Positions 7,592-56,139 of a stretch of DNA of 64,000 nt are shown one piece after another. This DNA comes from Vermiphilus pyriformis (GTDB taxonomy: Bacteria > Babelota > Babeliae > Babelales > Vermiphilaceae): NCBI GenBank assembly GCA_022559525.1, contig CP074345.1, positions 570,267 to 634,266 on the forward strand, written 5' to 3'. Position 1 is the stretch's first letter. Every line of letters begins with the position of its first letter. The position numbers and the translations under genes are program-made. Below the pieces are notes generated by a model, which was given only the letters and a program-made list of their open reading frames with translations, searched no databases and was not told where the DNA came from.

Positions 7592-9133
7592 ATGAGATAC
7601 TATAGTAAGTATATTATATACATGCTAGTAACATGCCAACTTAATGTACACAGTATGGAGCATGAGCTAGAACAAAATAAGCCTTCTCCTACTTCTGATT
7701 TATCTAGTATGGTCCTCGCGTTAAGTCCTTACACTCAAGCCGTACGAGAAGCAATACAAAATGATAATGTATCGCAAGTAGATCAACCCCTTATTGCCAT
7801 AAGTCAAGCATGCTCAATTTTCGGCTCATACAATTATCTTCATATTGCAGCAGAATATGGTTCAGTTAACGTAGCTAAATGGCTTATAAATACACATAAT
7901 TTCGATGTAAATCGTCAAACAAGTGATGACGAACAACTAACTCCGCTTATGATAGCAAGTAGTAAAAATCATAAAAAATTTGTTCATTTTCTTATTGATG
8001 ATATTAATATTAATCCCTTAAAAATTGATACGCAAGGCATGACTGCACTGCACCACGCATCAACAATTTATAGTGCTGCAAGTTTTAAAAGGATTGTAGT
8101 AAAATTTCCACAACTACTATATATTTCAGATAATTTGGGTAGAAATGTAACGCATCTTATTGCACAAAGAAATGCTCGAGACCTTTTAAAATTTATTTAT
8201 AAAAATATTTATGAAAATGAAAAGTTTGTAAATATCGCCCAACAGCATCCATGGATTGAGTATATTAATCAAAATTCGGGAAAAGATCCTAAATATCCAG
8301 GCTATACTCCCTTATTGTATGCTCTGGCTACATGCCCTACTGACCTTGATAAAAGCCTGTCAGGTACTGATAGTTTATCAGGCTCAGGTTTTTCGGGAAT
8401 AGAAGGTGAACGAGCTTTCAGAGCTACCCGCACAAAAACAATAGCATGGATTTACAAGCATGGCGGTAATCCTTACAAAGCAGCTACTTTATTCAAGGAA
8501 ACAGAACTTGCTGATTGGCCGCTATACCTTGCAATGCAAACAATGGATCATGAGTTAATATTATGCGTAGTCAAACAAATGATCGACTACAAAGAAACAA
8601 AAAACTTTCTAGTAACCAACGGCCCAGGCAAAGACATTTTAAGTTATAAGCCTAAGCAGGGCAAGGATTTATGGCAATGGGTAGATGAACAAAATCGTCC
8701 CGATCTTATACAATATGTCATTAATAAACTAGCAGAAAAATACCAAGTTGAATGTCCGTCATGTAGCCTTGAAAGCAAAACCTCAAACCCAAATACTCCC
8801 CGCTCAAGTCAAGATTTTGAAAACATTAATAATATAAATTATAATAACCCCCTTATTTTAGGTCCCAATGATCTTACAATCACAAGCTCTCAATGTGGAC
8901 ACTTTATTTGTATTAAGTGTAAAAAAGACTGGGTAGAGCGTAGTATAAAAAACAAAAGTAAAGAATGCCCTACATGCCCGGTATGCCGTGCCCCTTTAGA
9001 ACACTTTGAATTTGAGGGCTCTGGGACTGAACTCACCTTGTGGAAACCCAATAAAATAGTACCTAAAGGTAGCCCTCCTCAGTCGCACCATCCTGAGTCA
9101 GAAGATAGTAAAAAGAACTGTAGTATACAATAG
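7592..9133 (+). CDS. ankyrin-repeat protein with a C-terminal RING-type zinc finger (putative E3 ubiquitin-ligase-like effector)
   Basis: There is an AGGGAG RBS upstream. ANK repeats include YLHIAAEYGSVNVAKWLI, LTPLMIASSKNHKKFVHFLI and MTALHHAS. The C-terminal CPSC-x43-CGH-x2-C-x2-C-x15-C-x2-C-x2-C follows the C3HC4 pattern. Confidence 0.8.
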   Translation: MRYYSKYIIYMLVTCQLNVHSMEHELEQNKPSPTSDLSSMVLALSPYTQAVREAIQNDNVSQVDQPLIAISQACSIFGSYNYLHIAAEYGSVNVAKWLINTHNFDVNRQTSDDEQLTPLMIASSKNHKKFVHFLIDDININPLKIDTQGMTALHHASTIYSAASFKRIVVKFPQLLYISDNLGRNVTHLIAQRNARDLLKFIYKNIYENEKFVNIAQQHPWIEYINQNSGKDPKYPGYTPLLYALATCPTDLDKSLSGTDSLSGSGFSGIEGERAFRATRTKTIAWIYKHGGNPYKAATLFKETELADWPLYLAMQTMDHELILCVVKQMIDYKETKNFLVTNGPGKDILSYKPKQGKDLWQWVDEQNRPDLIQYVINKLAEKYQVECPSCSLESKTSNPNTPRSSQDFENINNINYNNPLILGPNDLTITSSQCGHFICIKCKKDWVERSIKNKSKECPTCPVCRAPLEHFEFEGSGTELTLWKPNKIVPKGSPPQSHHPESEDSKKNCSIQ

Positions 9134-9272
9134 ATTTTTTGTAAAACTATCTATATATAATAAAAAATTGACAAATATGAAAAAATAAATATACTTATAC
9201 TATACTATCATTACAAAAGTCCTTACAGTCACTATACTATAATTTTATCTATAAGCAGCGCTCTATTTATTA

Positions 9273-9300
9273 TTGACAAAGTGAAAATATAGGGTATACT
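9273..9300 (+). promoter_or_regulatory. sigma70-like promoter for the 9334 gene
   Basis: TTGACA, a 16-nt spacer, TATACT, about 34 nt upstream of the ATG. An AAAGAGG RBS precedes the start. Confidence 0.4.
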
Positions 9301-9333
9301 CATTTGATATAACAACATTAAAAAGAGGTTATT

Positions 9334-10542
9334 ATGATACGTACAATACAAAAATGTATAGGCATGATAGTGCTTATAACATGTACTATGAGTGGAGCTG
9401 AAAAAACTATTTTTCGCAACTCTAATATAGCAAAATTTAGCTACAACAGACCTGAGCTTAAAACAAACTTAATTGTAGGTAATGGTCCTATTGCAGCAGC
9501 AGTTGCTAACCTACATAGATCAAATAGCAGCTTTTCAAGCTTTCTAAAAGTTTTGAGTATAGTTACATGGGGTGCGTTTAAACATATTTACACTACACCT
9601 GTAAAAGATGAAACTCCTGTTCTACAATCTGAGCACTCTCAAGTACAAGTTGTAGAGCCTATAGAGCTTTCTCTATCATTTTCGGATGATTTGATTGGTG
9701 CATTAAATAGACGTGATTTCAATACAGCATTGAATTTAGTCAAGCATCCGTCAGTTACTGAAAATATTGTTAATAAACTTAACAAATTAGATCTTACTCC
9801 ATTGTGGTGTGTTGTAGGCACATTTTGTTGCTCTGATGATGAAGAAAAACAGTTACTTGAAGTTGTAAAAGCACTTATTGATAAAGGCGCACAAGCAAAC
9901 TATGTGTTTAGTAAGAATAAAAATGATATAACTCATAATGCATTCGTCAACGCATGTAAAGCAGGAAATATCTTAATTGCTGAATATCTGTACAAAGTAA
10001 TATATCCGTATGGAGTACTCATTGATATCGGTGAGAAGTTATATGACAACAATATGCTGAGCAATTTGCTTACTGAGACTATGAATAGCTATGCAGGTCA
10101 GCAAGGAAGCTTTAGAGAGATATACAAAAAAAGTAATGCTGGTAAATCTTTAACTAGCGTTCAAATTGACAAGATTTTTGAGCAACGCATGGCGCCTGTT
10201 ATTGAATTTTTGCTTGAAAAAATATGTTATTCAAATACCTTGCCTGTTATCAATATAAATAGCCTCCGTTCTGACGGCATGGGAGGCAGAATAAATTTCT
10301 CAGCTTTAGATCTTACACGTATGCTAACTAAAATAAACAGTGATGGAACAATACAAAAATTAGATCTTATTGAAAATATTTTACTCAAACATGGTGCAAA
10401 AGAAAAAGATCTTAATAGCTTGGAAAGCAGTATTCCTGATTTAGGGGATCCTAATCATGAAGCAGCGCCTCAAGTTACTGTAGTACCAGGATTTACAGAA
10501 ACTTTGACGTCAGCGCTTGATGGATCATATCATGGAAATTAA
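9334..10542 (+). CDS. secreted ankyrin-like repeat protein
   Basis: Signal-like N-terminus, with ANK-like units LEVVKALIDKGAQANYV, NACKAGNILIAEYL and LIENILLKHGAKE. Confidence 0.6.
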   Translation: MIRTIQKCIGMIVLITCTMSGAEKTIFRNSNIAKFSYNRPELKTNLIVGNGPIAAAVANLHRSNSSFSSFLKVLSIVTWGAFKHIYTTPVKDETPVLQSEHSQVQVVEPIELSLSFSDDLIGALNRRDFNTALNLVKHPSVTENIVNKLNKLDLTPLWCVVGTFCCSDDEEKQLLEVVKALIDKGAQANYVFSKNKNDITHNAFVNACKAGNILIAEYLYKVIYPYGVLIDIGEKLYDNNMLSNLLTETMNSYAGQQGSFREIYKKSNAGKSLTSVQIDKIFEQRMAPVIEFLLEKICYSNTLPVININSLRSDGMGGRINFSALDLTRMLTKINSDGTIQKLDLIENILLKHGAKEKDLNSLESSIPDLGDPNHEAAPQVTVVPGFTETLTSALDGSYHGN

Positions 10543-28450: not shown

Positions 28451-29626
28451 TTGGCAATCCTTTTTTATGTTATTCATACAGTCTGTGTGTTGCACACGTT
28501 ACTAAAACAAGATAAACCTACGCGTGAAAGGCAAAAGGAACTTTTGGTGAAACATCCATTTTGGATATTAAACAACGTACTTCTTATACTGTGCATTGTA
28601 ATATTCTTTTTTATTATGTTTGGCACAAAAAAACTTCCACGTCCTGTTGAGTTGTCGATACCTACTCAAACTGTAGCACCTACTCGACAGAATATATCCC
28701 ATATTCCACTTGAGAAAATTTATCAAGATGATCTTTTTGGTACATACAGTGTACCACCTCCTCCTGCAGTGGTAGCGCGAGACATTCCCGCACTTCCAAC
28801 ACCTCCCTTTCCACAGGGACCTAAGCCTATTCAAGAAGCTACGCTTCAATTCTTAGAACCTTTGAATGTCACACTTAAAGGGATAATTGCATTTATAGGT
28901 GATGACGCTCAAAATAGAGTAATTATTGCTGATAACAAAACTAATCAAGAAAGCAGCTATCGCACAGGTGATAGAATAGAAGATGCTCAACTCTTGCGTA
29001 TATTTACTAATAAAATATTACTTATTCGATCCAACGGACAGCAAGAAATACTTTTCTTGCGCGAACGAGAAGCTCAAAAAGATCCTATTTATGCAATGCT
29101 TGGTGGATGGCAGGAAATTGTGCAAAAGAAATCTGAAAACGAATACACTATTGCACAAGATCAATTTGTAGAACGTGTTAATAATCTTGCACAATTTATT
29201 GATTTACTTGATTTAACAACTGCGTATTATCAAGGTACAATTATTGGTAGTCGCATTGGCATTGTAGTTCCTAATTCGTTAGGAACCGCTCTGGGCTTGC
29301 AAACAGGTGATATTGTTACCAAAATAAATGGTATTCCCGCTACCGGAACAAGTGAGCGGTTTACGATCTATAAAAATATGACAAATGCACGACCTGGAAC
29401 ATCAGTAGAAGTTGAAATCACAAGGGGTTCGCAAAATATTGTATTTACCTATACACTTTATCAGATGAACAAAAGCACACGCCCCGCAGGATCAGTACGT
29501 TCTACTCCTCGAGCGTCAACTCAAGAAGTTTTGAGCGAGCGATATAAATTTGCTCCTACCGAGCAAGGGTTATATCTTAAAGAAAAAGAAGCTATGAAAG
29601 AACATGGCAGACTTATACCCGAGTAG
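28451..29626 (+). CDS. GspC-like inner-membrane protein with a C-terminal PDZ domain
   Basis: N-terminal TM segment (NNVLLILCIVIFFFIMF), a Pro-rich linker, and a PDZ-like GLQTGDIVTKINGIPATG. It lies immediately upstream of a secretin gene. The start codon is uncertain. Confidence 0.6.
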   Translation: MAILFYVIHTVCVLHTLLKQDKPTRERQKELLVKHPFWILNNVLLILCIVIFFFIMFGTKKLPRPVELSIPTQTVAPTRQNISHIPLEKIYQDDLFGTYSVPPPPAVVARDIPALPTPPFPQGPKPIQEATLQFLEPLNVTLKGIIAFIGDDAQNRVIIADNKTNQESSYRTGDRIEDAQLLRIFTNKILLIRSNGQQEILFLREREAQKDPIYAMLGGWQEIVQKKSENEYTIAQDQFVERVNNLAQFIDLLDLTTAYYQGTIIGSRIGIVVPNSLGTALGLQTGDIVTKINGIPATGTSERFTIYKNMTNARPGTSVEVEITRGSQNIVFTYTLYQMNKSTRPAGSVRSTPRASTQEVLSERYKFAPTEQGLYLKEKEAMKEHGRLIPE

Positions 29627-29629
29627 AGC

Positions 29630-44405: not shown

Positions 44406-46553
44406 TTACTTTTTATCAGGTACCTGGATGAAGCATTCAACGCGATCATCAACTTGCCAGCCAAGTTCTTGGTCAACCATGAACCCACACTCAAAGCCAG
44501 CATGTACTTCTTTGACCGTTTTCTTGTCTCGTTGCAAGCTTGTTATCTTCGCTTGGCCAACCTTTTGTTTGCCGTGCCAGACTACAACTGAACCATCTTT
44601 AGTAAATAATCCTTCTTTGATATAACAACCGGCAATAACACCTAAGTTTTTAATATCAAAAATCTTACGGATCACAGCTTCACCAATTTTTTTAGAAATA
44701 TATTTTATTTCTTTCTTGGAATCAGCAATTTCCTGAAGACGATTGAGCAAATGATATATTACATCAAAGTACTCTATGGTAGTTTCACTTCTTTGAGCCA
44801 GTGCAAGAGCATTGGAATCAGCTTTTACATGTAAGGTAATGATAGTTGCATGAGCTGTCTTGGCCATCATTACATCACTCTCAGTGACAGGACCAATACC
44901 AGTACTCACAACGTTAAAACCTTTTTCAGATTTTTTAGACAACTTAGATATTGCATCAATCAAAGCTTCCTTTGATGAATTAGTATCTGTCTTGACTAAT
45001 ATATTGATAGAATTTTTTGCTGAAAATTGAGTTGATTGAGTCTTATTACGAGACTCTGCTTCTGACTGCGACTTACGTACTGAGCCTTTTTCCATTGCTT
45101 GAAAAACATCACCAGCATTAGGAAGTGCATCAAAGCCCGCCACTAAAACGGGAATTGATGGGCCAGCTTTTTGTAATCTTTTACCAAATGAGTCTACAAT
45201 TGAACTCACTTTTCCTGCAGTCGTACCGCAGGTAAAATAATCACCCATTTGAATGGTTCCTGTAAGACACAATATAGTAGCTACAGGCCCACGACCTTTT
45301 TCAATTTTTGATTCAAGAACATATCCGTGTGCAGGCACAGAAGGGTCAGCTTTAAGTTCTAGTAACTGCGATTGAAGTACAATCAAGTCAAGCAATTGAT
45401 CTACACCTTGGCCAGTTTTGGCAGATATAGGAACGCAAATTGTTTGCCCTCCCCATTCTTCAGGCAATAAGTCATGTTGAGCTAAATCACGCTTAACTGC
45501 ATCCATACGACTTGCATCAACTTTATCGATTTTATTAATTGCAACAATGATAGGCAAGTTGCTTTCTTTAGCGTGTTTTATAGCTTCAAGAGTCTGTGGC
45601 ATAATACTATCGTCCGCTGCGACTACTAGAATAGCAATATCAGCTACTTGAGCGCCACGCGATCTAATTTTTGAAAACGCCTCGTGTCCTGGTGTATCTA
45701 AAAATACAACATCACCCTTTTCAGTATGAGCTTGATATGCACCTAAATGCTGAGTAATTCCGCCTTTTTCTCTTAAAGCAACACGTGTATTACGTATATA
45801 ATCTAAAAGTGTAGTTTTACCATGATCAACGTGTCCCATTACAACAACTATAGGTAGTCGCTCAGTACCGGTCTCAAGCGCTTCCTTTTTAAACAAATTT
45901 TGTTTTTTTTGCTCAGGAACACGTGGCTGAACTTGATAAAATTCAGCTATTCTTTTGACCAACTCAGTATCAATTATTTGATTTTTATTAGATAGCATGC
46001 CCCATTTAAGCATGGTAACAATAAGATCATTCACGGGCTTTTGCAAGCTTAAAGCAAGATCACCTAATGTTTGAGACTCAAGAACAGCATATGGCTCTTG
46101 AATTTCAACTGCCTGTTTAATGGTTGCTGTGTTACGCGTTTGAATATGTGGCTTTGGACCTACTTGCTGTGATTTTACATGATTCAAAGCAGGTTTTCCT
46201 TGGTTCCTATGCTGATTTGGGCTCACTTTGTTTTGCTGCACCCTTTTGTCCTGATTATTTTCAGAAGACGATTGAGCTATAGGAGGATTATTTTTAGGTT
46301 GATTATTTGATAAATTCATTGATTTTTTTTGAACCGACTGATCCGAATAAGAGGGTGATTGTGGCACAGCAGTATGTTTAGGGTGTGATACAGCTTCGGG
46401 GGTTTTTTTTGTAAATTTTTGAGTTAAAGCATCCATCATAGGCTGTGTAATAACCGCCATATGACTTGACACAGTAAATCCTGCTTCTTGTAAAGCTTCG
46501 AGAGCTTGTTTATTGGAAATATCAAGCTGTTTTGAAAATTCATATACACGCAT
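44406..46553 (-). CDS. infB: translation initiation factor IF-2
   Basis: G-domain motifs GHVDHGKTTLLD, DTPGHEAF and NKID. It follows nusA on the same strand. Confidence 0.97.
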   Translation of the reverse strand: MRVYEFSKQLDISNKQALEALQEAGFTVSSHMAVITQPMMDALTQKFTKKTPEAVSHPKHTAVPQSPSYSDQSVQKKSMNLSNNQPKNNPPIAQSSSENNQDKRVQQNKVSPNQHRNQGKPALNHVKSQQVGPKPHIQTRNTATIKQAVEIQEPYAVLESQTLGDLALSLQKPVNDLIVTMLKWGMLSNKNQIIDTELVKRIAEFYQVQPRVPEQKKQNLFKKEALETGTERLPIVVVMGHVDHGKTTLLDYIRNTRVALREKGGITQHLGAYQAHTEKGDVVFLDTPGHEAFSKIRSRGAQVADIAILVVAADDSIMPQTLEAIKHAKESNLPIIVAINKIDKVDASRMDAVKRDLAQHDLLPEEWGGQTICVPISAKTGQGVDQLLDLIVLQSQLLELKADPSVPAHGYVLESKIEKGRGPVATILCLTGTIQMGDYFTCGTTAGKVSSIVDSFGKRLQKAGPSIPVLVAGFDALPNAGDVFQAMEKGSVRKSQSEAESRNKTQSTQFSAKNSINILVKTDTNSSKEALIDAISKLSKKSEKGFNVVSTGIGPVTESDVMMAKTAHATIITLHVKADSNALALAQRSETTIEYFDVIYHLLNRLQEIADSKKEIKYISKKIGEAVIRKIFDIKNLGVIAGCYIKEGLFTKDGSVVVWHGKQKVGQAKITSLQRDKKTVKEVHAGFECGFMVDQELGWQVDDRVECFIQVPDKK

Positions 46554-46634: not shown

Positions 46635-47684
46635 TCAAGTTAATGAGCTGTTCTCTGTTGACGAGCTACTTTCAGAAGTTACCAGATGAATAGAGATACC
46701 TGCAAGTTGTGAAGCTAAATTTATATTCTGGCCCATCTTACCAATAGCCAATGAACGTTGATCGTCATCAAGCCATACTTGGGCATTATCTTGATCTATA
46801 AGTTCGACTCTATTTATTATAGCAGGTTTTAGAGCGTCCTTAATGAGCGTTTCCTTATGATCACTCCAGTGAATAACGTCAATTTTTTCTCCACCTAATT
46901 CTTTGAGAATAGGTTGGATTCGAGCGCCTTTTATACCTACACAGGTACCGACTGCGTCAACGTTTTCATCATTAGATGTAACTGCAATTTTTGATTTATA
47001 TCCTGCTGTTCGAACTATTTTTTTAACTTCAACTATATGATCATAAATTTCAGGAATCTCAAGCTCAAAAAGCCTTAGTAAGAATGTATCTGAAACTCGA
47101 TCAAGTATGAGTTGGTTATCATTGCGAGGTTCTTGAAGTACCTCTTTCAATAATGCTCTAATAGGATAACCTACAATACATTTATCAGTAGGAATACAAA
47201 GAGATTTTGGTAAAAACGCAAGATGATCTTGTAATTTTACTACAACGCCATTGCGTTCGCACTTATGGATTAAACCATGAACAATTGTATTTTCTTTGTC
47301 TTTAAATTGCTCATATACCGCATCACTTTCAATTTTGCGAATGCGCTGAGCGATAATTTGTTTAGCCCGTAAAATTTCAATTCGACCAATTTTACCATCA
47401 AATGGCATAACGATACGAGAACCTATTTCTGCTGATGGATTAATTATCTTTGCTTTTTTTAGACTAATTTGAGTGTCCTCATCTTCAACAGTTGGGACAA
47501 CCTCTTTTTCAACTTCAATAATAAGTTCATCTGACTTACGTTCATAATGAGCTTTGAAAGTAACATCGGGATAGCGCTTTGAGTATGCAGCTACCATGCC
47601 TTCACAAATAACTTCGCCCAAAACAGAGCGATCAAGGCCTCGTTCTTCTACCAACTCTTCAATGACGTCACCAAGTCTCATCAT
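46635..47684 (-). CDS. nusA: transcription termination/antitermination factor NusA (349 aa, no C-terminal AR domains)
   Basis: N-terminal domain, an S1 domain (VHGLIHKCERNGVVVKL) and KH domains (GACVGxxG-like GTCVGIKGARIQ, AIGKMGQNINLAS). Confidence 0.95.
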   Translation of the reverse strand: MMRLGDVIEELVEERGLDRSVLGEVICEGMVAAYSKRYPDVTFKAHYERKSDELIIEVEKEVVPTVEDEDTQISLKKAKIINPSAEIGSRIVMPFDGKIGRIEILRAKQIIAQRIRKIESDAVYEQFKDKENTIVHGLIHKCERNGVVVKLQDHLAFLPKSLCIPTDKCIVGYPIRALLKEVLQEPRNDNQLILDRVSDTFLLRLFELEIPEIYDHIVEVKKIVRTAGYKSKIAVTSNDENVDAVGTCVGIKGARIQPILKELGGEKIDVIHWSDHKETLIKDALKPAIINRVELIDQDNAQVWLDDDQRSLAIGKMGQNINLASQLAGISIHLVTSESSSSTENSSLT

Positions 47685-47910
47685 AATAAATTATCTTTGC
47701 AAAAATATGTAGTAAATCAGAACTATATTTGTATGTGCACATTTACAATGTAACCAAAATTATAAAACGCGCGTCCTTTTATATTAGTCAAAATACATAA
47801 AAGGCGCAAGTGGTATAAACTAAGCGCGTAAAGAGCAGTGAGGTTTTCCAATTGAAATCTTGAAATTTTGATATAAGTGCTATTTGATTATTTCAAAAGT
47901 TATCCACCAT

Positions 47911-47960
47911 GCCTACTATTATAAATATTTATATATATTTATATATTATAATAATAATAG
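47911..47960. other. AT-rich stretch, candidate DNA-unwinding element
   Basis: The block at about 47917..47960 contains only A and T, including ATATTTATATATATTTATATATTATAATAATAATA. It is bracketed by DnaA boxes in inverted orientation. Confidence 0.5.
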
Positions 47961-48181
47961 GCGTGGTGGATAAGTGGTGGATAACTTTTGAAAATAGGAT
48001 AATTGTTCCCTCTAGAGGCTTATTATGATATCAGTGGCGGGTGGTGGATAAGTGGTGGATAACTTTTGAAAATATATAAAAAACAGCTCTAGATCGATAA
48101 AAGTTATCCACCACCCGCTAAAACTGCCATCTGTAGGCAATTTTAAATAATTTTTAATAGACCTCTAAGGGGCCTGTAGAG

Positions 48182-48235
48182 TTATCCACCACTTATCCAC
48201 CACTTATCCACCACTTATCCACCAAGTTATCCACC
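48182..48235 (+). repeat. tandem 11-bp repeat CACTTATCCAC carrying four to five directly repeated DnaA boxes
   Basis: TTATCCACC starts at 48182, 48193, 48204 and 48215 (an exact 11-bp period), with a fifth box at 48227 (12-bp step). Confidence 0.85.
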
Positions 48236-48315
48236 ACTTAAAAAAATTCAATAAAAAATTATTTTATTTTAAGAGTTTTTATACTAATTCCATTAAAAAC
48301 ATTTGGCATTCTGGA

Positions 48316-48912
48316 CTATTGACTATTATTTTGTATGAGCTCAAAAGCACGCTTAATGTCACGAGTGAGTTCAGGAAGCCCAGCTGGATTACGTAAGACA
48401 TACGCAGGATGGTATGTTGGGACTACTTCAATTCCATTTACTACAAGTTTTGTGCCCCGCAGTTGTCCAATTTTGACTGGACGCTCAAGTAAGCCTTCCA
48501 AAGCAGAAGATCCAAGAGTACAAATAACTTTAGGTCGAATGATGTTTATTTGCTTTGTTAAGAGTAAGTCTTTGCATGTTTTCATTTCAAAAGAAGTAGG
48601 CTTACGGTTTTGGGGAGGACGGCATTTTACAATATTGGAAATGTATACGTGCGATCGTTCAAGACCTAAGGTAGCAAAAATGGTATTTAAAAGTTTTCCT
48701 GATCTTCCTACAAAGGGTTTTCCTTGAATGTCCTCATCTTGTCCTGGTCCTTCACCTATAAACATAAGACGAGCATCGGGGTTGCCAGAGCCAAATACTA
48801 CATGAGTTCGCCCTAGTGTTCCCAAGGGACATTCAATGCATTTTACATACGGACGGTATAACTCATCCAAAAGCTGTTGCTTGTAGTATGCGGGGTTCAT
48901 GATAATCCTCAA
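48316..48912 (-). CDS. family 4 uracil-DNA glycosylase
   Basis: GEGPGQDEDIQGKPFVGRSGKLL and the HPAYVLRNP motif. CxxC-type Cys residues near the N-terminus are typical of family 4/5 UDGs. Confidence 0.9.
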   Translation of the reverse strand: MRIIMNPAYYKQQLLDELYRPYVKCIECPLGTLGRTHVVFGSGNPDARLMFIGEGPGQDEDIQGKPFVGRSGKLLNTIFATLGLERSHVYISNIVKCRPPQNRKPTSFEMKTCKDLLLTKQINIIRPKVICTLGSSALEGLLERPVKIGQLRGTKLVVNGIEVVPTYHPAYVLRNPAGLPELTRDIKRAFELIQNNSQ

Positions 48913-50411: not shown

Positions 50412-51742
50412 TTATTTGGAACTAATAACCTGGGTTTTATGGGAATAAGAATGCCATAAGAGAATAAAGGTAATAAAAAAACTCAATTGGAAATTGGCAA
50501 AAGTGAGTGCAAGTGGATTAGTAACTGCAAAAAAACCTGTAATAAGTAGGAGCGTATGAAGAGCATGTGCAGGTTTATGGAACCAATTACTGATTTTCAT
50601 TATACATGCACTGTATAATGCCCTTTCAAAGGATATGCTTGGCCAGCTAAGACTATTGTATACACAGAGTAGTGCTACTATTAATAAGTCATTGTAACGT
50701 TTTGAGATAGGTAAAAATTTTAATAGGTTGCTAAGAATGAAAATGAAAACTGCAACATGAAGTCCAGAACGTGCTAAATAATGCAATATTCCCCATTTTT
50801 ACACATATTATCAAATTGAGACAATGCATTAGATTGAGAGGTGCCCCAGAAAAGAGGTTGCGCCACATTAAATGTTTCTTTTGAAAGTCTATTTTGGACA
50901 CCCTGTAAAATATAATTTTTAAAAAGAGATATAGTACGCGCAATACTAAAGTAGGGTCTGTACACAAGGTATATCATATTGCTTGAGACATATGCACAAC
51001 CGAGAATACCTTGCTTGATAAGAAATTTTTCAAATTGCATCTTGGGTATAGAACTAAATTTAAAGGATTTAATGGTAATGTGGTCGCCGGGAAGGTAATT
51101 GTTAGCACTATACATACAAATTTTGTAAGATGTTTTAATACTCAAATTTAGCGTAGGCGAATAGAGCCAGATACCTTCAATAGTAAAGTACGCCTGAGCA
51201 CGTGACGAATCAACCTTAACTTCTTTAATGATTCCATGCGCGCTCCACGCAAATTTTGTGTTGATCATATTGCGTGCATGATGCCACTGGTCAATTTGAT
51301 TGCAGTACTGGACAGAGCCATTTATGAACGCAATGATCGCTATTAGAATCATGATTATTTTGTAGTGAGAACGCAAGCATCCGATTATACAAAGTCCCAT
51401 TCCAACGTATATAATTGAATGTACATTAGAATCCATATATTCTATGGCAAGTACGTGGCATGCTACAAGAATCCAGATTGGATGAACGCAGGGAAATATT
51501 ATAATTTTTTTTACGGCTAAAACATTTTTTTGAATACATTTAAAAATCAGTTTGGTTAATTTCTCTATTTTTGATAGCATGGCAAATAAGTAGTAATGTG
51601 TGCGCGATAATATACAGATAAGGTGTGTTACATATGAAAACAGCTCAAATAACCACAATATGTTTAGCTCTGTGTATATCAGTTTATGCATGGATGGGTG
51701 CTGAAAGCAAACGCTCTCCCCTGAAACCTTCCGTGTATACAA
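50412..51742 (-). pseudogene. comEC: ComEC/Rec2-like membrane protein split by a frameshift, no metallo-beta-lactamase domain
   Basis: ORF 50774..51742 is a polytopic N-terminal part. ORF 50412..50786 carries the competence-domain-like ...YLARSGLHVAV motif. The ORFs overlap by 13 nt at an A-run. Confidence 0.6.
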
Positions 51743-55373: not shown

Positions 55374-56139
55374 TTACTGATGGGGTTTACGGGGAATAAA
55401 TATACTTGTAGTACGTTGATATATTTTATATTCATGATTGTTTATCATTTGCTCTTCAGTAAGTTTAATAGTAGCGCCAAAAAATATAGCAAGGATACAT
55501 ACTGGGCTTATTAATGCGATCCATCCATAGGGACTTGCAAGTGCTACAACGAATAAACCTATCCACATTAATGTCTCTCCAAAATAATTGGGGTGTCGTG
55601 AGTATTTCCACAGACCTGTAGTTAAAACAGAATTTTCAGCATGAGGTCTATGATTAAATTGGTACAACTGAATATCTGCAATAGTTTCAAATAAAAATCC
55701 GACGAGCCAGATAAAGATTCCCAGAAAATCTGAAAATTGTAGTGGTATTTGATAATTACAATTGATAATAATAGTGCTCGTGCTTATTAAAAGAATAAAA
55801 TCCTTGAAGCATGAACACTTTTAAAAAACCCATTAACCGCTGTTGATTGCCCCATGATTTTCGCCATTGACGATATCGAGCATCTTCTGTGTGCCCTTTT
55901 TTTCGATATGCGATATATATTGATAGTCGCAATGCCCATATAGTCGTTAGAATTACTGCTACCCATTTGCGTGCTGTAATAGAGTTACAGTAATATAAAG
56001 AGTACCAAGCAACAATCACAAACCCTATTCCCCATGCAATATCGGCAATACTATTATCCTTTTTTATTTGCGCAATAATAAACATGGCTGACATAAAACA
56101 GACAATAATCCCTATCAAATGTATACTAAGAGTAAGCAT
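55374..56139 (-). pseudogene. DUF1295 / steroid 5-alpha-reductase-like membrane protein with one frameshift
   Basis: The N-terminal ORF 55756..56139 contains WALRLSIYIAYRKKGHTEDARYRQWRKSWG. The frame of ORF 55374..55667 contains GLWKYSRHPNYFGE and stays open upstream to about 55800 (GIFIWLVGFLFETIADIQL). The two frames meet at T-runs. Confidence 0.75.

Follow-up and report, generated by a model that had tools for sequence, protein, structure and literature searches.

Vermiphilus pyriformis, an amoeba endosymbiont, is a member of the Dependentiae (TM6) with a closed genome of 1.1 Mb, which was built from Oxford Nanopore Technologies (ONT) reads polished with Illumina reads. In the 64-kb stretch of this genome analyzed here (contig CP074345.1, positions 570,267 to 634,266; hereafter the window, in whose coordinates positions are given), a non-coding gap of 631 bp separates the start of nusA (47684) from the longest open reading frame (ORF) of a uracil-DNA glycosylase (UDG) family gene (48316). 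The NusA encoded there matches the NCBI entry for V. pyriformis with 100% identity. Twelve exact matches to the DnaA box TTATCCACC occur in the window, and eleven of them are packed into 336 bp of this gap (47900-48235), beside a run of 43 bp composed of A and T only. From the anatomy of its sequence and from its counterparts in related genomes we argue that the gap is very probably the chromosomal replication origin (oriC) of V. pyriformis.

Seven of the eleven boxes read on the + strand (starts at 47900, 48104, 48182, 48193, 48204, 48215 and 48227) and four on the - strand (47965, 47976, 48043 and 48054). None of the eleven deviates from the motif, and elsewhere in the gap there is a single site with up to two mismatches, which is the level expected by chance. 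In 100 dinucleotide-preserving shuffles of the window, TTATCCACC occurred on average 0.31 times per 64 kb and at most twice, and none of the 100 attained twelve. The twelfth perfect copy stands isolated within the aspS coding sequence (37014-37022, - strand), 10.9 kb away from the cluster. The A/T-only run (47917-47959) is the longest in the window, followed by one of 29 bp; in first-order Markov simulations such runs had a mean of 23.5 bp and a maximum of 31 bp. It also represents the least stable 30-bp and 45-bp duplex anywhere in the 64 kb and is directly flanked by boxes. A box cluster of oriC has been taken to comprise at least three DnaA boxes at a mean distance below 100 bp (quoted in PMC7561715), a density that the nusA-UDG gap clearly attains.

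An earlier interpretation of this DNA from its letters alone (the sequence-only reading) had listed the same eleven boxes in 336 bp, seven one way and four the other, had judged the 9-mer too frequent for chance, and had described an A/T-only stretch of about 44 bp beside them as well as flanks, infB-nusA and UDG-C11-comEC, lying entirely on the minus strand. The exact matches and the shuffles bear this out, the run being 43 bp long when measured, and Pfam together with the ORF list agrees on the flanks. Neither a structured RNA nor a tRNA was detected in the whole window (Rfam at gathering threshold, tRNA scan), so the gap is not explained by a structured RNA. A promoter scan of the gap gave matches at chance level, and a terminator scan gave one site, inside the nusA coding sequence.

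A proposed unwinding element with two faces

In the basal unwinding system (BUS) of bacterial origins, a DnaA box is followed in order by a GC cluster of 4-5 bp, by DnaA-trios of the form 3'-[G/A]A[T/A]-5' and by an A/T-rich region (PMC7561715, PMC8235120, PMC8287927), the GC cluster between the trios and the box proximal to the DNA unwinding element (DUE) being a feature set out in PMC8235120. The published search rules accept a box with up to two mismatches and a first trio 0-16 nt away from it (PMC8287927); they permit a single box and require three or more trinucleotides in succession, each with A at its center (PMC8287927, PMC7561715). The BUS has been reported as predicted in most bacterial origins.

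The elements of the V. pyriformis gap are collected in Table 1. Since the CTA and TTA repeats at either end of the A/T run are the complement of 3'-[G/A]A[T/A]-5', they read as DnaA-trios, four in succession at 47949-47960 and three opposite 47913-47921. The first of the four lies 4 nt from the box at 47965-47973 and 15 nt from the box at 47976-47984, and the mirror box is again 4 nt from its own trios, all within the 0-16 nt allowed. The short spacers are GC-rich to differing degrees (three of four positions in ACGC, two of four in the mirror ATGC), and the boxes at 47965-47984 form a co-oriented pair. Judged by these rules, the gap contains every sequence-level feature of a candidate BUS. 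Moreover, the predicted unwinding element is mirror-symmetric, with a candidate guide leading from box to GC cluster to trios on each strand. The polarity of the boxes relative to the trio strand agrees with the arrangement of R1 and the DUE in E. coli oriC. It likewise agrees with the 5'-CTA-3' notation of PMC8235120.

Table 1. Elements of the nusA-UDG locus and its neighboring genes, in window coordinates
Feature	Position	Strand	Basis
Proposed oriC, intergenic between nusA and UDG	47685..48315	.	ORF list, Pfam; cumulative G-C minimum 47796; change-point 48362
74-bp near-palindrome, mirror-symmetric candidate unwinding core (box-GC-trios-A/T / A/T-trios-GC-box)	47900..47973	.	inverted repeat without spacer, arms of 37 nt with 81% complementarity
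Mirror module on the nusA side: DnaA box TTATCCACC facing the A/T run	47900..47908	+	exact match
4-nt spacer ATGC between mirror box and trios	47909..47912	+	sequence
CTA CTA TTA (+), giving three DnaA-trios 3'-GAT GAT AAT-5' on the - strand	47913..47921	+	trio definition of PMC7561715, PMC8235120
43-bp A/T-only run, proposed DUE	47917..47959	.	longest A/T run, least stable duplex
TAA TAA TAA TAG, four DnaA-trios, 3'-GAT AAT AAT AAT-5' outward from the box pair	47949..47960	+	sequence; conserved CTATTATTATTA in relatives
GC cluster GCGT (ACGC on the box strand) between trios and box pair	47961..47964	+	sequence
DUE-proximal co-oriented DnaA box pair TTATCCACC-ac-TTATCCACC	47965..47984	-	exact matches
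Second box pair, identical to the first and 78 bp away	48043..48062	-	34-bp exact direct repeat 47963-47996 / 48041-48074
Lone DnaA box in the distal orientation	48104..48112	+	exact match
Distal array of five head-to-tail boxes, steps of 11, 11, 11 and 12 bp, opposed to the proximal pairs	48182..48235	+	exact matches, repeat search
nusA, transcribed away from the proposed origin; conserved neighbor	46635..47684	-	Pfam; synteny
infB, beyond nusA	44406..46553	-	Pfam
UDG family gene, conserved neighbor on the other side	48316..48912	-	Pfam; synteny

Conservation of the locus and its strand composition

The cluster recurs in named relatives (loci L008-L010, L088 and L089, with NusA 53-71% identical), which carry 6-10 TTATCCAC[C/A] boxes directly upstream of nusA and include a complete genome (AP025250.1, with nusA near 1,134,200-1,135,278 of 1,222,284 bp) and one contig of 1.6 Mb. 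Because most boxes of L009 are the canonical TTATCCACA, the motif of the cluster can be taken as a DnaA box. The surrounding gene order is conserved as well and runs M16 peptidase, comEC, C11 peptidase, UDG, the gap, nusA, infB, AP endonuclease and, after further genes, aspS. The UDG side of the proposed origin is not strictly invariant, since in AP025250.1 (L088) an extra ORF of 495 aa without a Pfam hit (7965-9452, - strand) lies between UDG and the cluster. The contig behind L009 (JBLICC010000015.1), which belongs to a metagenome-assembled genome, is titled 'Alteromonas naphthalenivorans', yet it encodes a Babeliales-type NusA (62% identical) and has the Dependentiae origin layout; its title is probably a binning or labelling error.

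Metagenome contigs were scanned in addition for the phased pair TTATCCACCNNTTATCCACC, which was found at no fewer than 80 loci. Among the matches listed, to which all counts of related loci in this and the next paragraph refer, about 27 loci are of Dependentiae type, being flanked by nusA and/or UDG, mostly with 8-11 boxes and with NusA mostly 52-71% identical. The same cluster thus lies between UDG and nusA in at least about 30 other Dependentiae loci. Several low-GC metagenome loci with the box pair and no nusA or UDG (L109, L094, L168, L137, L145 and L091) were considered as second Dependentiae clusters and rejected, as they belong to other taxa. Many short-read contigs, both from V. pyriformis and from relatives, stop within the box cluster (L003-L007, L090), as is to be expected of exact repeats of 20-34 bp. 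The eight boxes of L002 (eleven in the window and in L001) may be real strain variation, or the 78-bp repeat may have collapsed during k-mer assembly, and we place no weight on them.

Some 28 of the loci share one plan. Read in the sense of nusA, a distal array of 4-5 head-to-tail boxes, present in all relatives compared, comes first, and it is followed, after a spacer of about 110 bp, by 3-4 boxes arrayed in the opposite orientation and, a 67-bp step further on, by one more box; then come a spacer that is A-rich in its first part and GC-rich in its 3' half and that measures exactly 14 nt in about 20 loci, CTA TTA TTA TTA (3-5 repeats), an A/T run of 20-49 bp and finally 150-250 bp up to the nusA start. 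Neighboring boxes of the same orientation are spaced by 11 bp (n=102), 12 bp (n=26) or 67 bp (n=17), and 223 boxes from 25 loci yield the extended consensus A[G/C]TTATCCAC[C 89%/A 11%]A. Most relatives have one recognizable box at the position of the DUE-proximal pair; in the window, which reads TTATCCACC-ac-TTATCCACC-acgc-CTA TTA TTA TTA-A/T run, a true second box occupies the spacer, and the 67-bp step is kept between the boxes at 48043-48051 and 47976-47984. The trio sequence CTATTATTATTA stands at a fixed distance from the box in about 20 related loci while the sequence around it diverges, and it is this combination of conserved distance and conserved trios in diverging surroundings that lends support to the unwinding model. 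The convergent, two-sided arrangement is found also in L111 and L159, with a 7-nt spacer; the other relatives are one-sided.

The strand composition of the window changes at the same place. With a G-rich leading strand, it is the minimum of the cumulative G-C curve, and not its maximum, that marks an origin. The minimum of the window falls at 47796, within the gap, and remains there after 5.8 kb have been added leftward, so that the cumulative skew check proposed with the sequence-only reading, when run on the window and its extensions, comes out in favor of the gap. A single change-point fit places the switch at 48362, the skew of the next 9.5 kb rightward of the window is still +0.068, and the A-T skew shifts at the locus in the complementary sense. 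Measured on the + strand, the skew left of the gap is -0.023 in + genes and -0.059 in - genes, and right of it +0.058 and +0.062, respectively; at third codon positions the corresponding values are -0.096 and -0.121 on the left, and +0.183 and +0.077 on the right. Because genes on either strand flip in the same way, and third codon positions with them, the change of sign is not an effect of gene orientation, and the skew minimum expected of an oriC is present locally. Among the matches listed, the origin-type pattern is seen in 11 of the 12 related loci that extend at least 1.5 kb to both sides of the cluster, the cumulative minimum usually lying within about 400 bp of it; there, too, gene orientation cannot produce the change of sign, because transcription runs the same way on both flanks.

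Interpretation, known origins and rival explanations

The sequence elements are observed directly, as are their spacing and conservation and the switch in skew; from them we infer DnaA binding, oligomerization, unwinding and helicase loading along the following lines. DnaA would bind the eleven identical TTATCCACC boxes, which form opposed groups, with four boxes in two pairs toward the DUE and an array of five on the far side, and the 11-bp, roughly helical phasing within the groups would favor head-to-tail DnaA oligomers like those of the two halves of E. coli oriC. From the DUE-proximal pair, ATP-DnaA would pass the GC cluster onto the four trios of the + strand, extend along this strand alone and melt the A/T-only run of 43 bp, and the mirror module (box 47900-47908, ATGC and three trios on the - strand) would give the second strand a guide of its own. 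Helicases loaded in the resulting bubble would establish two diverging forks, which would account for a G-over-C excess that changes sign at the locus. The proposal of the sequence-only reading that this is a candidate oriC away from dnaA is thus strongly supported, the skew minimum, the conservation and the BUS anatomy all fitting it.

Compared with a B. subtilis-type BUS, the locus is alike in its co-oriented box pair, 4-nt GC cluster, four trios and A/T-rich run, and its spacings of 4 and 15 nt, like the 14 nt of the relatives, fall into the published range of 0-16 nt, which peaks at 10-13 nt. It differs in that it does not lie between dnaA and dnaN, that the unit is duplicated in mirror image, that the trios are mostly AAT and not GAT, and that it is known here from sequence alone. 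Two opposed clusters of DnaA boxes beside a DUE are the layout of E. coli oriC and V. cholerae oriC1 (PMC10316083), and the gap repeats this layout with four - boxes (47965-48062) and five or six + boxes (48104, 48182-48235), as do the relatives with 3-4 and 4-5 boxes among the matches listed. Like those two origins it lies apart from dnaA, has opposed clusters of 4-5 boxes of which the proximal one points at the DUE, and spaces its boxes 2-3 bp apart with a period of 11-12 bp. However, E. coli oriC mixes boxes of high affinity with degenerate, ATP-DnaA-specific ones of low affinity, and no such mixture is seen among the eleven identical perfect boxes of V. pyriformis; the proximal array of some relatives, such as L088, does include degenerate boxes. 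Also unlike E. coli oriC, which neighbors gidA and mioC, the gap lies between nusA and UDG, contains one GATC and no 13-mer repeats, and showed no clear match by eye, no systematic scan having been made, to the WATCAANNNNTTR site of integration host factor (IHF), which in origins of the E. coli type binds between the DUE-proximal box and the remaining boxes. Within the phylum, an origin has been predicted for Chromulinavorax destructans at 651641-652233 of a 1.17 Mb chromosome from GC skew and TTATCCACA boxes (PMC6561590). It resembles the present locus in phylum, in size (593 versus 631 bp) and in lying far from the start of the record.

Several points weigh against the gap being oriC. The origin of Babela massiliensis, of the same phylum, has been placed 152 nt upstream of dnaA, by GC skew alone (PMC4378268). 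Here dnaA, dnaN, gidA and parAB were all absent from the window in Pfam scans of nearly all ORFs of at least 80 aa, in agreement with what the sequence-only reading had stated for the first three, and dnaA, dnaN and parAB were not found between window coordinates -5766 and about 73540, a span that reaches about 53 kb leftward of the cluster, past nusA, and about 25 kb rightward, past UDG. The indicator genes dnaA, dnaN and gidA, which are common at origins and not required, are thus missing from that span. A location 'away from dnaA', as had been claimed, therefore holds for these distances; the gene itself would lie beyond them, where a cluster equal to this one or denser could accompany it. 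The Noda2021 record is an unrotated HGAP assembly, and its coordinates are thus uninformative on the position of dnaA. In the relatives, a six-frame translation search returned no DnaA signature within 10 kb of the cluster, and in six-frame translations of all loci compared such signatures appeared only in loci of other taxa. A parS site was likewise missing, as nothing within three mismatches of the consensus turned up, and neither parS nor parAB stands nearby. The skew data comprise about 80 kb of the V. pyriformis genome and up to 21 kb per relative. Furthermore, the genes on either side of the locus point the same way: nusA-infB is co-directional with the inferred leftward fork, UDG, C11 and comEC are head-on to the rightward one, and the head-on genes amount to 29.1 kb against 13.6 kb co-directional on the left (68%) and to 9.0 kb against 5.7 kb on the right (61%). 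Such an excess is unusual for the surroundings of a bacterial origin and may stem from a weak strand bias in this lineage. The missing strand-bias switch had already been held against an origin in the sequence-only reading, correctly so as a matter of fact, yet it is outweighed by the skew at third codon positions.

How else could these features have arisen? The cluster might titrate or recycle DnaA, or regulate the nusA-infB promoter, with initiation taking place elsewhere. Dense clusters outside oriC do exist and regulate initiation or neighboring genes (PMC3245932), and datA, the DnaA-reactivating sequences DARS1 and DARS2 and the B. subtilis clusters share with the present locus a dense group of consensus-like boxes in a gap that is not beside dnaA. 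The position directly upstream of the nusA-infB operon speaks for such a cluster, as do the lack of dnaA between -5766 and about 73540 and the dnaA-adjacent origin reported for Babela. However, the Babela call was made from skew alone, with no boxes reported. A titrating or regulatory site needs neither an unwinding element nor a trio register nor a skew switch, and the known clusters of this kind have no attached DUE, trios or switch, whereas the V. pyriformis locus has all three: its boxes are joined via GC cluster and trios, at conserved spacing, to the least stable A/T run of the 64 kb, and the skew switches right at the locus, as it does in 11 of 12 related loci among the matches listed. 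We therefore consider this explanation very unlikely, and the datA- or DARS-like alternative offered by the sequence-only reading finds no support in a locus to which a DUE with trios is attached and at which the skew switches.

Somewhat less remote, and still improbable, is that the locus is one part of a two-part or dual origin, which unwinds here (or did so ancestrally) while a second functional cluster lies elsewhere, for instance at dnaA. Bipartite origins are known from B. subtilis, H. pylori and C. difficile, a preprint predicts dual origins for the Halomonadaceae, the surroundings of dnaA are outside the surveyed span, and the origin positions published for Dependentiae disagree. Against this, bipartite origins known so far lie on either side of dnaA, a gene missing here, a complete set of two box arrays, trios and DUE is present within about 340 bp, and those loci adjacent to dnaA or dnaN among the matches listed have neither the Dependentiae layout nor its neighbor genes. 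That the locus is instead a replication terminus or a recombination hotspot, with a skew flip unrelated to initiation and incidental repeats, strikes us as barely conceivable. Genes on both sides do tend to point toward it, as is usual at termini, and short-read assemblies often break there. Yet the cumulative G-C curve has its minimum here and not its maximum, the repeats consist of perfect DnaA boxes whose arrangement relative to trios and DUE is conserved, and breaks are expected at exact repeats of 20-34 bp.

Taken as an origin, the gap would be an ordinary oriC of the DnaA-box/DUE kind, if an unusually tidy one, and origins away from dnaA are well known. We found no published description of a phylum-wide nusA-UDG position, of invariant 14-nt and 67-bp distances or of a palindromic, two-sided DUE. 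The joint reading, which we advance only tentatively and hold to be possible more than probable, is that all Dependentiae have an oriC fixed between nusA and UDG and detached from dnaA, with boxes almost all of consensus strength and a strict 14-nt distance from box to trio and 67-bp step, and that its DUE has become two-sided in V. pyriformis and, independently, in the lineage of L111 and L159. If the DUE were indeed two-sided, DnaA filaments would form on both strands, which could be a natural, symmetric way to load two helicases; if the position were indeed phylum-wide, the dnaA-adjacent origin of Babela would be a mis-assignment or would attest to relocation within the phylum. In this little-studied phylum, whose members are obligate protist parasites, a candidate origin placed so precisely on a closed genome would be of use in annotation, fix the replichores and permit growth rates to be estimated from metagenome read depth, and it may reconcile the differing origin calls for Babela and Chromulinavorax. 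The comparison of at least about 30 genomes would also provide independent natural support, from a deep-branching lineage, for the model of box, GC cluster and trios, and the palindromic DUE would lend itself well to studying how both strands are engaged. All this leaves the accepted view of bacterial initiation as it was, and the origin would not surprise a specialist.

Other observations in the window and in other loci

The nusA leader (about 47750-47800, - strand) contains a hairpin, GCGCCTTTTAT ... ATAAAAGGaCGCGC, followed by GTTTTATAATTTT, approximately 90 nt upstream of the nusA start, which could, as a candidate read from the sequence, be a terminator or attenuator of the nusA-infB operon; the fold of the whole leader is no more stable than that of shuffles (z = -0.38). 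Three genes of the window are split relative to other assemblies of the species: comEC (50412-51742) into 124 and 322 aa (389 aa elsewhere), a DUF1295 gene (55374-56139) into 97 and 127 aa (255 aa elsewhere) and a secretin gene (34491-36738) into 477 and 297 aa (821 aa elsewhere). The DUF1295 gene is intact in a contig from Illumina run SRR14181581 of the published isolate, and the three splits are probably residual long-read indel errors rather than pseudogenes. The split secretin gene is part of a type II secretion-like block (28451-36738) that has a second secretin gene (29630-32119), with GspC-like and GspL/PilM-like genes between and before the two.

Eukaryote-like proteins, typical of protist parasites, are encoded in this region as well. 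An ankyrin-repeat protein with a C-terminal RING finger (7592-9133, + strand) is a possible E3 ligase effector, an ORF at 58569-59678 matches ankyrin weakly and below threshold, and two large WD40 beta-propeller proteins are encoded in the right-hand extension (L211, 18042-21254).

Among loci of other taxa, four gut metagenome contigs from a low-GC organism (L094, L168, L137 and L145) have 5-6 DnaA boxes beside rplJ-rplL and an ftsW-like gene, with no dnaA in the stretches compared, and may represent another lineage with an origin away from dnaA. A metagenome contig of 62% GC (L112, 5288-5560) carries 25 head-to-tail TTATCCAC[C/T/A] boxes with an exact period of 11 bp, an array far longer than that of any origin compared here, which could be a DnaA-titrating array or a plain tandem repeat.

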